Assembly (NCBI GenBank): GCA_000004695.1
Contig: CM000151.3
Coordinates: 2,112,001 to 2,176,000, forward strand
Direction of reading: 5' to 3'
DNA length: 64,000 bases
Source of the DNA: Dictyostelium discoideum
Lineage: Eukaryota
Numbering within the stretch: the stretch's first letter is position 1; every line of letters starts with the position of its first letter. Positions 19,119 through 59,829 of the stretch are shown in pieces. A program made the translations under genes and the position numbers. The notes below the pieces were generated by a model. That model searched no databases and had not been told where the DNA came from. It saw only the letters and a list, made by a program, of their open reading frames with translations.

Positions 19119-22100
19119 ATTAATTTCTAGAATTGATGGTTTTTTACAATGAATTAAAAAAGAAACTGATTCTAATTCTTTTGACATTATTATATATTTA
19201 AAATTATGATTTGTTAATAAATCGAACCAAGATTGTTGATTCATACAACAACTATCTTTTCTGATATCAGTATCTTGAAATGACCACCACTGATTGAAAA
19301 CACCAAATACATTATCTAGAATTATTGAATTAAATGGTGGTTCTATAAATAATAATTGACCATTTGGTACAAGAACTTTATAAATTTGATCAATTGAAAA
19401 TCTAATATCTTTAACCACATGTAATACATTTGACATTATTACATAATCATAATATGAATATTTCAAATTTTGTTTTTCAATTAATGGTTCTTCTAAATCT
19501 AATGAACGATAAATTATTTTTATACCAAATTTACCACCATCTAAATCTAAATCATTATTATTCTCATTATTATTATTATTATTATTATTGTTTATAATTT
19601 TTGATAATTTTAATTTTGCATCTGGTATGAATGACGTTGAAATATCACTCCATGTATATTCAATATCAATTTGATTAAAAACATTATTACTCTCTTCAAG
19701 TAATTGAGTAATTTTATTTAATACAACCATTGATAATGAAGAAACACCACCACCAAATTCTAAAATTCTTATTGTGATTTTCTCTTTTTTCAATACCAAT
19801 GGTTTAATAGATTCTTTAATAATTTCAGCAAGTAATTGATGATTTTTTGCAACAAATTCAGTATCTGAATAAAATTTATCAAGTAAACCATCTTCAAATA
19901 AAATTTGTGGACTATCTAAATTTGAATCATTTTCATTTTCAAATGGAAATAATTGTTTTGAAATTACTCTAGTTGATCTCTTTAAAATTTTATAATTATT
20001 ATTATTTTCCATTTGTTTTTTTAATTCTTTAAAATTATTATTATTATTATTTTTATAACCAAACATTTTTATAGTTTTAAAAACTGATTTAAATAATCTT
20101 TCATATTGAATTGAATTTTCTAAATTTTTATTAATAAAAATTGATTTAAAATTTAAAAATAATTGATCAATTGATTGATTTTCAATTTCTTTAATTGTTA
20201 TATTTGAATTTCTTTTATTAATATTTAAAAACAATGAAGATGATATAAAATTTTGATAAATTGAAATATTTGAACTATAGATATCTTTTGATTTAAATTG
20301 ATCAGATTCATAAAGTGATTTAAATGATGAAGGTGCACCAATTGGTGAATCTCTTGGTTGTAAATATCTTGAATATACTAAATCAATTGGATATTCAATT
20401 TCTAAGGGATTTTTAACTATTTTTAATGATTTACAAATTACTCTTTCAATTTCAATTAAAATCGTACCATCTTTTAACATTATAATAATTGATGCTAAAT
20501 ATGAATTTCCTAATCTTGATTTAAATTTTGAATAAACGAAAATACTATTATTACTACTATTAATATCATTTGTTTCATATACTTGTAAATTTGATGAATA
20601 ATATTTTAATCCTTCAATTTTATGAAAAACTAGTTGACAATTTTCTTGAATTAATGCAATCATTCCATGTAAACAACTATCTAATAATTGTGTTTTAAAA
20701 AATGATTTTGATGTTGATGAATTAACAGTAACTTCTGATAAAGAACAACTATCACCTAAAAAACACTGAATAACACCTTGAAATTCATCATTATAAGTTA
20801 AACCTGTTTTTGATTTTATATGTTGATATAAATCAATTCTTGATATTTTTGTTTTATTACACTTTTTTGAAATTATTTCTTGTAAATTTAATTTTTTATT
20901 ATTATTATTATTATTACTATTATTATTATTACTATTATTATTATTTAATAATTGAAAATTAGCAATACATGATTGTACCCATTCATTTGATTTATTATCT
21001 TTAAAGTGATAATAAAGTTTAAATTCAGTTTTACCAGTTTGGAAAACATTTGTTTGTAAACATTGATTAATACCATCTATTAAAATTAATGGTGATTTAA
21101 ATTCCATTGAACTAATAGTCAAATCTTGTGATGGATATAATTTCAATAGATTATCAATGTAACCACAACCTGGGAAATAGTATTTACCATTTACAATATG
21201 ACCTTTAAGATATTTGAATGGTTCTTTCTTTATATCAATAAATGTTTGATATGATTTAACATTTGATGAATTATCATAGTTTGATAAACCAAGTATATCA
21301 ATTGGTGGTCCCTCAATTCTATGTTTTTGTTGAATCAAATCTTCTTTCCAATACTTTTCATCATCCCATTGATAATTTGGTAATGGTTGTGGTTGTGGTT
21401 GTTGTAGTGGTGGTATTACTGTGTGGTTGTGGTTATTAATACTACCACAATCAAATTGTGATTTAAAATTAATATTATATCTATTTTCACAATAAAGTTT
21501 AGCAATTGTTTTTTGAATCTCCATAGTATCATTCTTTTTCTTATGAAGTGGTGAATAAATTGATATTTTCCCACTAAAATAATTTGTTGATACAGGTATC
21601 ATTTGTTTTAAATAAAATTGTAATGTTGGATGTGGTGCTAATTCAATGAATACAATATCAGTTCCCAATTTATTTATTTCAATATGTTTATATAAATTTG
21701 ATATAGTTTGTGAAAATTTAACTGGTTCTACTATATTATTATAAATATATTCAGAGTTAAATGGTGTTGTTGTTGTTTCTACATTATTATTATTATTATT
21801 ACTATTATTATTGCTATCATTAAAATTATTATAATATAAATTTGTTGTAACAGTTGAGAAAATTGGTATTTTTGGTAATTCATAATCAATATTTAATTTT
21901 GAAATATCATCTTTTACTATTTTTTGATTTGAAGTATGGAAAGATGATAATGAAGCTAACATTTTTGAGAAAATTCCTTTATCTTTTAATTCATTTGATA
22001 TTTGATTTAATTGTTGTTCTTTACCTCCTAATACAATTGAATTTGGTGAATTGTAACATGCAATTTCAATATCTGGGTATTTAGTTGAATAATTTGATGA

Positions 22101-22898
22101 TAAATAATCTTCAGAGCTAATATTAACTGATAACATTCTACCACCATTACAATGTGTTTGAATTTGTGCTAATGATCTATGATAAATTAAATAACATAAA
22201 GTATCCAATGTAATCATACCTGAGCAATAAGCTGCTGGAATCTCACCTAAACTATGACCAACTATAAATGATGCTTCAATACCCCAATGTTTATAAAATT
22301 CAAATAATGATATAGCTAACATACACATTATTGGTTGTGCGATTGTTGGATGTTGAATACTAATATCATCATCATGATCAGTAATTGATATGAATTTTTC
22401 AAAAACTGAATAACCATAATATTTAAATAATTTATTATCAAACATATTGATTGATTGTTTGAAAATTGGTTCACTATTATATAATTCCATTGCCATTCTA
22501 CTATATTGTGAACCTTGACCTGCAAATACAAATACAACTATAGGATTCTTACTATGAACCATTGACATTGTTGATGACTTTGAATTTAATGTTTGAACTC
22601 TATTTAATTGTTCTTTCTCTTCTCCTTCTCTTTCTTTTTCTTTTTCTTTTTCTTTTTGTGATTGTTTTTGTTTATTAAATTCATCCCAATTTGAAACCGA
22701 AAAAATTACTAAACGTTGATAAAGTGATAAAGATTTATTAAAAATTTGATTTTTAACAAATTCATTAAAATTTATTTTTAATTGAAATTCTTCACTTTCA
22801 ATAATTGATTGATATTTCTTTAATGATAAAGTTGAATTTGCTGAAAAAGGTATTAAATACTTTTTTGGTTGACTATTATCATATTGCTGCTGTCCTCG

Positions 22899-22960
<62 letters not shown>

Positions 22961-24353
22961 GATTTTCATTATTTTTAAATTGTGATAAAATTAAACAACA
23001 ATTTGAACCAGTAATACCAAAACTATTGATTAACATTGTTATTTGTTTATTTGTATTAAATTGAATTGGTTCAGTTACAACTTTTAAATTCCATTCATTA
23101 AATTTAATCATTGGATTTGGTTTATTAAAATTAATATTTGGAACAAAGTAACCATTTTTAAACATTAAACAACATTTAATTAATGATGCAACACCCGATG
23201 CTGCCTCTAAATGACCAATTGAGCTTTTAATTGACCCAATTAATAATGGTTGTTGAGTTGTATTATTATTACTACCACTACAACTACCACTACCAATAGC
23301 AATATCATTTAATTGTTTAAATGAATTTGAAATTGCTTCTAATTCAATTGGATCGCCAGTTGGTGTACCAGTACCATGTGCTTCAATATAATCGATATTA
23401 TTGAATTTAATTTTACCATTGGTTGATTGAATTGCCATTTTAATATTTTCACACTGTGATATTGATGAAGGTGAAAAAAAGTTTTGTTTATCTTTTAAAC
23501 CACCACCATCAACATTTGAACTTGCACCATTGATAATACAATAAATGGTATTACCATCTGATAATGCTTGTTTTAAACTTTTTAAAACCACAATTCCAAC
23601 ACCTTCTCCTCTGACATATCCATCAGCACTTTCATCAAATGTCATACACCTTGCTGTACCATTAGTTGATTTACTTAACATATTTAAATGGGTGAATGAT
23701 TTTGAAACGTTTGTATCCAACAATAAATTTACACCACCGACAATTGATAAATTACAATTGTTCTGCTTACTGAATTTAATTGATTGGTAACCCATTTTAA
23801 TAGCATTCAATGATGATGAACATGCTGTATCAATTGTAATTGATTCATTACGAAAATCAAAACAATATGATATACGATTTGAAATTGAATGATTTGTCAA
23901 CCCGAATATATTAGATTTGTTATTATTCATTTGATTTTGTTGTTGATTTTGATAATCATTAGTTGAACAACCAATGAAAACTGATGTATTTGAACCACGA
24001 ATTTTCATTGGATCAATTCTTGCATCTTCTAATGCTTCCCATGTACATTTTAATAATAGTCTTTGTTGTGGATCAATGCTTGGTGCTTCTGATGGATTAA
24101 TACCAAAAAATAATGGATCAAATGATTTCCATTCATCAAGTGGTAATAAACCAGCATTTCCATTTGAAATTTCACCCAATTCATTGAAATTATCACTCCA
24201 TCTTTCTCTACTTTCAATAATACCATCAAATCCATTCATTAAATTATCCCATAATTCAATTGGTGAATCATTTGATTTAGAAATATCTCCCGATGGTAAT
24301 CTAAATCCAATACCAACAATTGCAATTTCATCATTATCATCAATAATATTATT

Positions 24354-55089: not shown

Positions 55090-57650
55090 CTATGTTTTTA
55101 TTTCTTTGTTTTTTCTTTTTAATAAATTGAATTAAAGAATTGATAGTATTACTTTGAATTTGTAGAATGGTTACTAAATTTATACCAATTTCTTTATCTA
55201 TCCAATTCTTTAATTGAGCAATAAATAAAGAGTCTGCACCATAATCCACAAGACCAATATCTAAATTTAGTTTAATTTCTTCAATTGATAATAACTCTGA
55301 TATCTTGGAAATAATTAACCACCACTCATATTAGATTGCTTTGAAAATTCTGTTGCTGATTCTTCAATAAGATTTTCAAATTTAATTGAGATTGAATGTT
55401 GTGGATTATTTTTAAATATATTAAAATTAAATTGGTTGAAAGTCTTGATTTTGAATTTGTAAATCTAATGAACCTACTTTATTCATTGTGACAATATTGT
55501 AACCTTGAGCCTCTAATGTAACTGCAATCGATGCATTTCTTAAAACTAAACCAGATTTAATTGAACAAATTGATGGTAATTTAAATCTGATACGATTTCA
55601 TTTAATTTTTGTTCATTACCTGCAATGACAATTGATGTCGGTGAATTGTAACATGAAATTTCAATATCTGAATATTTTTAAGAATAATTTGATTTAAATT
55701 TAGATTCATCAATGTTTATTGATAACATTCTACCATTAGCATGGGTTTTATTTTGTGCAATTGATCTATGATAAATTAAATAACATAAAGTATCCAATGC
55801 AATCATACCTGAACAATAGGCTGCTGAAATTTCACATAAACTATGGCCAACTATAAATAATGCTTCAATTCCCCAATGAGTATATAATTTAAATAATGAA
55901 ATTGTTAACATGCAAACTGATGGTTGTGCAATTGTTGGTTCATGAATTGATTGAGTATCAGTTGTTCTTAATTTCTCAAAAACAGAATAACCATAATACT
56001 TTGACAATGCTTCATTTAATTGATAAATTGATTGTTTGAAAATTGGTTCGTTATTATATAATTCAATTGCCATTGTATTATATTGTGAACCTTGACCTGC
56101 GAATACAAATATGGTAATTGGTTTCTTTCTTTTAATTGATATATTTGCTGATTTTGAATTTGATGTTTTAAAATATCCTAATGATGGTGTTTTAAATTGA
56201 TCCCAATTTGATGCAATTATTACAGATCTTTGAAATAATGATCTTGATTTCTTTAAAATTTGATTTTGAACAAATATTGAAAATTCAACAAAATCAATAT
56301 CTTTTGAAATTAATTGTTGTTGATAATCTTCCAATGATTTTGTTGAGTTTGCTGAAAATGGTACTAAATATTCTTTATTTTTATTTTTTATGGTGTTAAT
56401 AGACTTTTCAGGAATTGTTTCTTTAAATTCGGATAAAACTAAACAACAATTTGAGCCAGTAAAACCAAAATTATAAATTACAATTGAAAAAGGTTTATTA
56501 TTATTATTAAACTTTGAAAATGGTTCTGTAATAACTTTTAAATTCCATTCATCAAATTTAATCATTGGATTTGGAATTGAATAATTTATATTTGGAACCA
56601 AGCTTTTATTAAAAAGTATTAAACAACACTTGATTAATGATACTACACCAGATGCAGCTTCAGTAAGACCAATCGAACATTTAATTGAACCAATTAATAA
56701 TGGATTTTCTTTTGAACGAGTGCCATCATTATTAAAAACCATTGATATACTTTTAGTTTCTAATATTTGTAGCTTGGGATAATGGTGCATAAAAATTTGA
56801 TTTATCCTCAAGACCGAAACCATCGACATTTGAATTTGCACCTTTTAAAATACAATAAATTTTATCACCATCTTTAATTGCTTTTGTTAATTTCTTTAAA
56901 AGTACAATACCAGTACCCTCTGCACGAACAAGGCCATTGGCATCTTTATCGAATGGTCTACAAACCCCAGTTTTACTTAACATATTAAGGTATGAAAATG
57001 CTTTAATATTTGTTGTATCCAGAATTAAATTTACACCACCAACAATTGATAAATCTGATTTACCTGTTAAAATTGATTGACGACCTAATGTAACTGCAAC
57101 ACCTGATGATGAACATGCAGTATCAACAGCCATTGACTCACCACGTAAATCAAAACAATAGGAGATACGATTAGCTGTTCCATGTGCATATGTACCAAAA
57201 ATATTTAAATATTGTTTATTTTGATTTACATTGGATTCTCTATATTCTGATGTTGAACAACCAACAATTACCGATGTGTTTGATGCTCTTAATTTCATTG
57301 GATCAATTCCTGCATCTTCAAATGCTTCCCATGTACATTTTAATAGTAATCTTTGTTGTGGATCAATAGTTGATGCTTCTGATGGACTAATACCAAAAAA
57401 TAATGGATCAAATGACTTTAGTTCGTCAAATGGTAATAAACCTGCATATCCATTACTTATTTCTCCCAATCTACTGAAATTATCACTCCATCTCTCTGTT
57501 GTTTTTACAACACCATTAAATCCATTCATTAAATTACTCCATAACTTAATTGGTGAGTCATTGTTTGCTTTTTCTTCGCCACTTGGTATTCTAAATCCAA
57601 GCCCAATAATTGCTATATCTTCATTATCATTATTTATAGTAAACTTCTTT
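55090..57650 (-). pseudogene. Relic of a type I PKS paralogous to 14877..24401: KS (no ATG, frameshift at about 56800) + N-terminal half of AT (GHSLCE) + tail of KR + ACP; DH/MT/ER and the C-terminal domain are deleted
   Basis: Minus-strand frames: [26 protein letters not shown]...[11 protein letters not shown]... (KS, 60-70% identical to the intact PKS). ...FVFAGQGSQYNTMAIELY...GHSLCEISAAYCSG... then stop. 55480-55570 VGSLDLQIQNQDF. 55130-55330 [45 protein letters not shown] (ACP). Confidence 0.8.
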
Positions 57651-57984
57651 TTTTTTTTTTTTTTGATTTATTTACTTTTTCTTTTTTTTTTTTTTTTTTT
57701 TTTTTTTGGTTTAATATCTTCTAAAATAATAAATAACAATAAATGTTTTTAAAGGAAAAAAAAGCTAATAATTTAATGATTATACAAATCAAAAGAATAA
57801 AAAAAAAAACCAAATGTATTTCCTTACATTATGTGATACCAATTTGATAACTTTTTTTTTTAATCAAATGGGAAATAAATAAATTATAAATTAATATTAA
57901 TTTTTTTAAATAATATTTTCAAATGAAATATAAGGTTCATACAATGCCCAATTTTTTACTACCCTCCCTTTTTTTTTTTTTATT

Positions 57985-58010
57985 TAATTATTATTTTGGG
58001 GGTTGGGTGT
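57985..58010. promoter_or_regulatory. G-rich element TTTTGGGGGTTGGGTGTTTGTTT about 340 bp upstream of the PKS relic
   Basis: GBF-type G-box-like. Isolated in an A/T-rich spacer. Confidence 0.3.
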
Positions 58011-58267
58011 TTGTTTATTAATAAAAATGATTTTTTGTACAAATTGTCATTATTTTTACTTTTAATTTATTTAAAAAAAATAAATTTATCCTTGTGGTAA
58101 GATATAATTTCAAATAATGAGTCGTTAAAAAAAAAGTTGCTTTTTGAAATTTTTAATCTTATTTTATCTATTATTTTTTTTATTTTATTTTATTTTATTT
58201 TTTTGTTTTATTTTACTATTTTTATTACGTGAATATTAGTATTTTAATTTATTTGTTATCATCATTT

Positions 58268-58334
<67 letters not shown>

Positions 58335-58340
58335 CCTTAC

Positions 58341-59350
58341 CTATTTTTTAAAAAAGAAATCGTTTAAAATGGCCAAAGTATTAGCTGGTGATTTTACAGT
58401 AAAAGATTGTGTAATTCTTGGGTGATTAGCAATTTCATAATCATTACCACCCAAAAAAGTTTTATCACCAAAAAAGTAGAGTGTTTTAAATTCATCCTCT
58501 GGTAAATGACGTAAACAATAAGTTTTATCCCAACCAATTGGAAAAACATCAAAACTTATTTGACCACCAATTGAATATTGTAAACCAAAAGATTTAAATT
58601 CCTCTTTTAATATTGATACCATTGTTGATCTAATTTTGTGTTCCTGAAAAAAAAAAAAAATTATTATTAAATTTAATATATATATATTTAATCATATTTA
58701 AAAGTACAATAAACCTACCAAATCATACTTTTCAAATTCTTCACGTTCTTGTTGGGAACAATTTCTACCAATTGGCGAGATATTAAGCATACCATTTCTA
58801 AATTCAACAAAGGTACCTCTTTTTATTGGAATATCAAGATCAGCTACATAATGTAACACAAAATTAATAAATTTTTTGATATTTTCTTCACCTAAATACT
58901 TTTTAATATCCTAAAATAATATTTAATTATTATGATGCTATATATTTTATTTATGATTACTACTATTAATATAATAAAAAATTTTAATAATTACTTGAAT
59001 TTCTAATAATGAACCATCTTTATATGCTATTAAACCATTTTCTGCAAATACATAATCAAAATCATTAATAAAATTTTCACCTAATTGCTCTTTAATTTTA
59101 TTAAAATTAGAGCCACCAACAACACCTATCTTTATTTTTGTTCTTAAAGATGCCAATAATTCTTTCATTTCATTGGTGATTGCCTATTTATTTTTTAAAG
59201 CATTTTTATTATTTTATTTTATAAAAATGTTAACCAATCATTTTATTAATTTATTTTATAAAAATATAAAATACGGATACTTGCATTTCTCGGTTTAGTT
59301 AAAGTATCATCCACATCAAACAAACATATAGTGTTTTTATTTTGTGACAT
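58341..59350 (-). CDS. pmmA: Phosphomannomutase; 4 exons (about 59350..59285, 59183..58995, 58910..58709, 58643..58341)
   Basis: [22 protein letters not shown] | [35 protein letters not shown]...[10 protein letters not shown] | [64 protein letters not shown] | [47 protein letters not shown]...[16 protein letters not shown]... Aligns colinearly with PMM2. Intron 1 uses a GCAAGT donor. Confidence 0.85.
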
Positions 59351-59797
59351 TTCAAAGGAATTTTTGTTAATAAATCTCACAAATCAGATTAATCAAAACA
59401 AATGAAAAAAAAAAAAAAATGAAAAAATAAGAAAATAAAAAAAAAATTTATAACATAAAAAAAAGGAAAAAGGAAAAATTGAAAAAAAATCAACATAAAA
59501 AAAAAAAAAAAGGAAAAATTAAAAAAAATTATTGCGTTGTTGCCAATGGGAGCATGGAAAAAAAGGTAAAATAAAAAAAGAGGTGACTAACCGAGCAGCG
59601 CCACATAGAAATAAATAATAAATAATTAATTATTTTTATATCCAGCCAATCTTAGTTGTTTATTTTAAAGAAAAAGATTTTTTTTTTTTAAAGATTTTTT
59701 TTTTTCCCAACACCCAATATATTTATAGTTTTTGAAATTTTTATTTTTTTTTTTTTTTTTTTTTTTATTTTTCATTTTTTATTTTTTTTTATTTTTA

Positions 59798-59829
<32 letters not shown>

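Follow-up and report, generated by a model that had tools for sequence, protein, structure and literature searches.

A probable GC-AG intron in the Dictyostelium discoideum phosphomannomutase B gene, derived from a GT donor

In Dictyostelium discoideum, the gene for phosphomannomutase B (pmmB) has a first intron that is very probably a functional GC-AG intron of the U2 type, and comparison of its donor among strains and relatives indicates that it arose in the D. discoideum lineage by a single T-to-C change at donor position +2, from an ancestor whose donor read GTAAGT. The intron occupies positions 59284 to 59184 on the minus strand of the 64,000-nucleotide stretch of D. discoideum DNA that was analysed (referred to below as the window), and all of the tests that were run agree with its assignment to the GC-AG class, as the initial annotation had proposed.

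U2-type GC-AG introns account for about 1% of introns in most eukaryotes and have the donor consensus AG/GCAAGT. The pmmB intron shares with this class the GC at +1 and +2, the AG at the 3' end, the AAGT at +3 to +6 and the existence of GT-AG orthologs, and is in other respects an ordinary short, AT-rich Dictyostelium intron; it differs in that the last exon base is T and in that the host genome nearly lacks the class. In a transcript-based survey of 61 species, the overall GC-AG fraction was ~1.3%, and D. discoideum had the lowest value of all, with 3 of 3309 introns (0.09%) in this class and GT donors in 99.7% (PMC3033335, Additional file 1).

Direct reading of the sequence places a phosphomannomutase gene of four exons, in very AT-rich DNA, on the minus strand between 59350 and 58341. 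Exon 1 (59285..59350, minus strand) begins at the ATG at 59350-59348, encodes 22 amino acids that include the nucleophilic Asp of HAD motif I and Arg21, and ends with CCG AGA AAT, the last base being 59285 and the bases that follow GCAAGTATCCGT. Intron 1 (59184..59284, minus strand) is 101 nt long, has 12.9% G+C and interrupts the frame in phase 0 after codon 22. Its donor, GCAAGTAT, has the G at 59284 and the C at 59283, so that the start of the intron reads GCAAGTATCC / GCAAGT, and its acceptor is AAATAG, with the AG at 59185-59184; the boundaries, the GC donor and the acceptor given in the initial annotation were thus exact. Exon 2 (58995..59183, minus strand) starts with GCA ATC ACC AAT GAA ATG and ends with SLLEIQ, and is followed by intron 2 (58911..58994, minus strand; 84 nt, GTAATT...TTTTAG), exon 3 (58719..58910, minus strand, from the translation of the gene model), intron 3 (58644..58718, minus strand; 75 nt, GTAGGT...TTTCAG) and exon 4 (58341..58643, minus strand), which includes the stop codon TAG at 58343-58341. 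Both of these downstream introns are canonical. The coding sequence of 750 nt specifies a eukaryotic phosphomannomutase (PMM) of 249 amino acids.

This product agrees in all 249 residues with the curated D. discoideum AX4 protein named phosphomannomutase B (XP_001134630.2, EAS66964.2, UniProt Q86B09.2 PMM2_DICDI), so the gene is pmmB and not pmmA, the name it had first been given. The pmmA product (Q54X03 / DDB_G0279289) belongs to a separate protein cluster, the representative of which is 81% identical to the pmmB product. In searches against Pfam, the GC-AG product matched PF03332 (339 bits, residues 28-247) and PF08282 (residues 10-198); the match to the PMM domain (PF03332, HAD-IIB) is full-length, and HAD motif I (DxDxT, here DVDDT) lies upstream of it. 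Among the members of the protein clusters of P0001 and P0003, proteins of the pmmB type were seen only in D. discoideum and 'D. cf. discoideum', and D. citrinum, D. firmibasis and D. dimigraforme were present in the pmmA cluster only; pmmB may be confined to the D. discoideum complex, or else be unannotated elsewhere.

The position of the junction was analysed by enumerating all GT or GC..AG and AT..AC pairs that leave the frame open between the start codon and the end of exon 2. Only one of these, GC59284 joined to AG59184, gives a colinear protein (...LTKPRN/AITNEMK...), in which the AAT ending at 59285 is joined to the GCA starting at 59183 in phase 0 and the reading frame is restored. When translation starts at the ATG at 59350, neither of the nearby GT dinucleotides (59280 and 59274) can be joined in frame to the acceptor at 59184, and both need instead an AG ending at 59162; the resulting products have 243 amino acids (...PRNAKLLAS, a net loss of six residues) and 245 amino acids (...PRNASIQLLAS, a net loss of four). 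The initial annotation had held that every GT in the neighbourhood is either in the wrong phase or deletes eight conserved residues, and the statement about phase is borne out, whereas the real net loss is four to six residues.

Family PF03332 begins at residue 28, after the junction, and cannot discriminate between these models, so a custom full-length profile was built from 104 full-length PMMs, with the pmmB cluster left out. On this profile the GC-AG product scored 423.4 bits and the best GT-AG products reached 404.8 and 401.7 bits, which gives the former a lead of 19-22 bits (18.6-21.7). In none of the 104 homologs is there a gap within residues 16-34, which span the junction, and the GC-AG product aligns to them without gaps, in keeping with the earlier claim that only the GC-AG join permits a gapless, colinear alignment to PMM2. 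A difference in the same direction was obtained with TIGR01484 (96.9 bits for the GC-AG product, 88.1 bits for the GT-AG alternative), and the two best GT-AG products were absent from a collection of 15 billion proteins.

The sequence at the intron 1 position was compared across strains and related species. The window, three further D. discoideum genomes (L004, L005 and L006, the loci of GCA_054859355.1, GCA_054859385.1 and GCA_054883475.1) and two Logan read-set contigs (L010 and L011) all read AAT/GCAAGTATC at this site, and two genomes labelled "D. cf. discoideum" (L001 and L002) read AAT/GTAAGTAT at the identical nucleotide, with the same acceptor (AAATAG/GCAATC). The donor in the latter pair is the canonical GTAAGT, so the GC donor occurs in 4/4 D. 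discoideum genomes and 0/2 'cf. discoideum' genomes. A GT-AG intron is also found after codon 22, in phase 0, in a pmmA-type paralog (L003) and in D. purpureum (L007); the introns at this position in orthologs and paralogs (L001, L002, L003 and L007) are therefore ordinary GT-AG introns. Of the two relatives in which the initial annotation had suggested examining the junction, D. purpureum shares the intron position, and D. fasciculatum (Cavenderia fasciculata, L008) has, like Tieghemostelium lacteum (L009), an uninterrupted reading frame of identical spacing at this point, so that being intronless it is informative on spacing only. By parsimony, the ancestral donor was GT, with one T-to-C transition on the D. 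discoideum stem. Among the sequences compared, L006 is 99.4% identical to the window over 9.6 kb, and L002 (GCA_054859235.1; 3100-3215) has a first intron of 154 nt, as compared with 99-101 nt in the others, its surplus length being an internal duplication of the segment AATGATGGGTTAAATTATGAATCTTTAAAAAATAAT.

Six pmmB genomes were aligned to assess selection on the reading frame, four with the GC donor (the window, L004, L005 and L006) and two with GT (L001 and L002). Across the six, ~6% of exon columns are variable and the exons contain no gaps (5.8% and zero gaps for exon 2), while 38-50% of intron columns are changed or gapped (44% for intron 1, as against 6% in exons). Exon 1 differs among the genomes by synonymous changes only (0 nonsynonymous), the pairwise pN/pS values of pmmB are 0.06-0.14, and the 22 nt from 59183 to 59162, which would be intronic if either GT donor were used, contain one change in six genomes, a synonymous GAA to GAG. 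When only the four GC-bearing genomes are considered, 1.5% of exon columns are variable as compared with 11.8% of intron columns, and the variable sites comprise 9 synonymous and 2 nonsynonymous ones, a split with a binomial probability of ~1.5e-5 against the 80.5% nonsynonymous sites expected at neutrality. These substitution patterns indicate that purifying selection maintains the frame set by the GC-AG junction and has done so since the GC donor arose. Because selection acts on the frame that this junction defines, the intron would have to be removed at the 59284/59184 boundaries, and from this we infer that intron 1 is indeed removed in vivo, which the match of the joined product to the curated protein also supports indirectly.

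A mechanism can be proposed in which the T-to-C change left the donor usable. Retained U1/U6 complementarity at other positions is the usual compensation in GC-AG donors, and in pmmB the bases at +1 and at +3 to +8 (G.AAGTAT) would keep the consensus for pairing with the U1 and U6 snRNAs. The AAGTAT at +3 to +8 is a full consensus match, and the last two exon bases are AT rather than AG; the T at exon position -1, in place of the G typical of GC-AG donors, counts against the GC-AG reading, as does the extreme rarity of the class in this species. By joining AAT (59285) to GCA (59183) in phase 0, splicing would let the frame of exon 1, which encodes the catalytic DxDxT motif and Arg21, continue into the remainder of the enzyme. 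Processing would be by the major spliceosome, since Dictyostelium is reported to have no minor one. A plausible candidate branch site is TTAAC (59229..59233, minus strand), in which the A at 59230 would be the branch point, 46 nt before the intron's 3' end; it matches the generic branch motif yUnAy, and the block that contains it, TTGGTTAACATTTTTATAAAATAAAATAATAAA, is conserved in the alignment of all six genomes.

An unlikely extension of this mechanism is that the change from GT to GC was not neutral, so that a weak donor, spliced inefficiently or depending on conditions, tunes down a diverged paralog in D. discoideum through retention of the intron or use of decoy GTs. The pmmB protein departs from the consensus shared by at least 95% of the 104 PMM homologs at exactly two positions, codon 15 (59305-59307, minus strand), where G15 is replaced by D and HAD motif I changes from DVDGT to DVDDT, and codon 48 (59106-59108, minus strand), where D48 is replaced by N and GGSD becomes GGSN. 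Both replacements are fixed in all six pmmB genomes. Only one other homolog, P0070 from a JGI metagenome, has either of them, and it carries the pair, a pattern that points to coupled substitution close to the active site and perhaps to a diverged activity. In the attenuation reading, too, the recently diverged paralog with the G15D/D48N pair may have a diverged activity.

The alternative that junctions would be formed from GT59280 or GT59274 to the AG ending at 59162 has some appeal, in that these are the only in-frame GT-AG joins nearby that keep exon 1 and that GT donors make up nearly all D. discoideum introns (PMC3033335). It is nevertheless very unlikely, since the protein of 243 or 245 amino acids would lack most of AITNEMKE, a deletion of four to six residues at a place where all 104 homologs are free of gaps, with the deficit in profile score and the absence from the public protein collection described above. 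In addition, the 59183-59162 segment is nearly invariant where the real intron is 44% changed or gapped, the GTAAGT consensus is matched less well by GTATCC and GTATTT than by G.AAGTAT, and the sister genomes use the GT that is equivalent to 59284. A shift of the boundaries by 4 nt, to GT(59280)...AA(59180) would yield the same mRNA by way of the GCAA found at both ends of the intron, and since GC-AG and GT-AA are indistinguishable at the mRNA level, cDNA alone could not separate them. This U12-like reading draws on the donor GTATCCGT, which matches 7/8 of the U12 donor consensus RTATCCTT, and on TGCTTTAAA 11-12 nt upstream of the AG. A U12-type intron requires RTATCCTT, TCCTTAAC at 10-15 nt from the 3' site and the U11, U12, U4atac and U6atac snRNAs; what is found is a superficial likeness, with GTATCC at +5..+10, that is 4 nt off the boundary, and TTTAA 11-12 nt from the AG. 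The CC of the motif varies between strains (GTATCG in L001, GTATTC in L002, GTATCA in L005), the GTAAGT consensus itself accounts for the GT at +5/+6, both sister genomes show a clear GT...AG where the window has its GC-AG boundaries, and Dictyostelium is reported to be without U12-type splicing or its snRNAs (PMC2846911; PMC11347168). A variable motif, relatives with plain GT-AG at the U2 position and the reported absence of a minor spliceosome led to rejection of the U12/GT-AA reading, the probability of which is negligible.

It could also be proposed that the T-to-C change killed the donor, leaving pmmB as an unspliced, decaying duplicate (a unitary pseudogene) while pmmA supplies all PMM activity. 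The existence of the pmmA paralog (Q54X03), the G15D and D48N replacements at near-invariant positions, the decay of the adjoining polyketide synthase (PKS) gene in the same strains and the outcome of searches for transcripts would all fit this proposal. With respect to the last of these, no transcript-derived pmmB fragment was found in the protein collection, where a search with the N-terminal 117 amino acids matched nothing but P0134, an ORF that reads through genomic sequence in Logan contigs, and scanning metagenome contigs for exact copies of the spliced pmmB junction gave no match. There is likewise no transcript-derived pmmA protein in the collection, so the lack of such proteins for pmmB is uninformative. 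A search of the literature yielded no relevant work on pmmB, Q86B09 or Dictyostelium phosphomannomutase, the 'pMMB' matches being Legionella plasmids. Against the proposal, the reading frame is intact in 4/4 GC-bearing genomes, with 0 indels in 750 nt while the introns gain indels, the excess of synonymous changes has built up since these strains diverged, and so after the GC donor arose, and G15D and D48N also occur in the GT-bearing sisters and are thus older than the donor change. The pseudogene reading was rejected on the pN/pS values and the absence of indels, and is highly improbable. An error of sequencing or assembly at C59283, or a mutation private to the laboratory strain, has nothing in its favour except the rarity of GC donors in the genome; three other assemblies, of which two share only ~93% identity with the window across the locus, carry this C as well, as do two independent SRA-derived contigs. 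These five additional independent sequences (L004, L005, L006, L010 and L011) led to its rejection, and it is almost certainly not the explanation.

Several features of the surrounding DNA were also recorded. A block of ~45 nt just 5' of the ATG (59351-59396, minus strand, TTGATTAATCTGATTTGTGAGATTTATTAACAAAAATTCCTTTGAA) is nearly invariant in all six pmmB genomes and is probably a 5'UTR or core promoter; the T-rich sequence upstream of it is highly variable among the same genomes. On the other side of the gene, ~60 uninterrupted A's start a few bases past the stop codon (~58,270-58,335, minus strand; TAGGTAAGG A(n)), a typical Dictyostelium intergenic homopolymer that probably accounts for length differences between assemblies. 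A scan of 58000-59800 with Rfam found no RNA family, so the introns host no snoRNA. Downstream of pmmB lies a PKS remnant (~55,580-57,700, minus strand) that matches the N-terminal KS/AT part of a PKS of 2150-2163 amino acids; the two 'cf. discoideum' genomes have an intact copy of this PKS at the syntenic site. In the window the remnant is divided between ORFs (57529-56753 and 56841-55678) that overlap and lie in different frames, and L004 and L005 have different, larger deletions in the same PKS. A second PKS-like region at ~22,000-24,350, with 75-81% DNA identity to the pmmB-adjacent PKS of related genomes, is a PKS paralog at a separate site in the window.

The curated AX4 model of pmmB (XP_001134630.2, EAS66964.2, Q86B09.2) describes the same protein with zero detectable difference, so the GC-AG form of intron 1 is already implied by this model and in that sense already known, and is an ordinary case of a rare class. 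The '.2' versions of the curated record suggest that the model was revised at some point, and it may rest on homology rather than on transcripts. In the automated annotation of the other, recently deposited D. discoideum strain genomes (L004-L006), by comparison, translation starts at an internal ATG (59286-59284) that overlaps the GC donor, and the GT at 59274-59273 serves as donor (the two decoy elements span 59273..59286, minus strand), so that the predicted protein consists of MQVS plus exon 2 and what follows, and the catalytic DxDxT is lost. The mis-annotated strain proteins are either a 231-amino-acid MQVS model (P0122/P0123) or, in one strain, an 848-amino-acid fusion of pmmB with the PKS remnant. 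The GC donor is apparently the cause of these mis-models. Gene predictors pass over GC donors on account of their great rarity in D. discoideum; the curated AX4 model is right.

Conversions from GT to GC between orthologous introns have been described in mammals and other taxa. The pmmB case shares with them a single T-to-C change at +2, the preservation of boundaries, phase and product, and the presence of GT in sister lineages, and differs in that it is seen at the level of populations and of a species complex in a social amoeba. What the present analysis adds to the curated model is that the donor change is derived and fixed in D. discoideum, and that it is apparently the source of mis-annotation in newly deposited strain genomes. 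No new question is opened by the pmmB locus; it provides a clean and datable example of natural GT-to-GC conversion, fixed in one species and missing from its nearest relatives, in a gene that remained under purifying selection.
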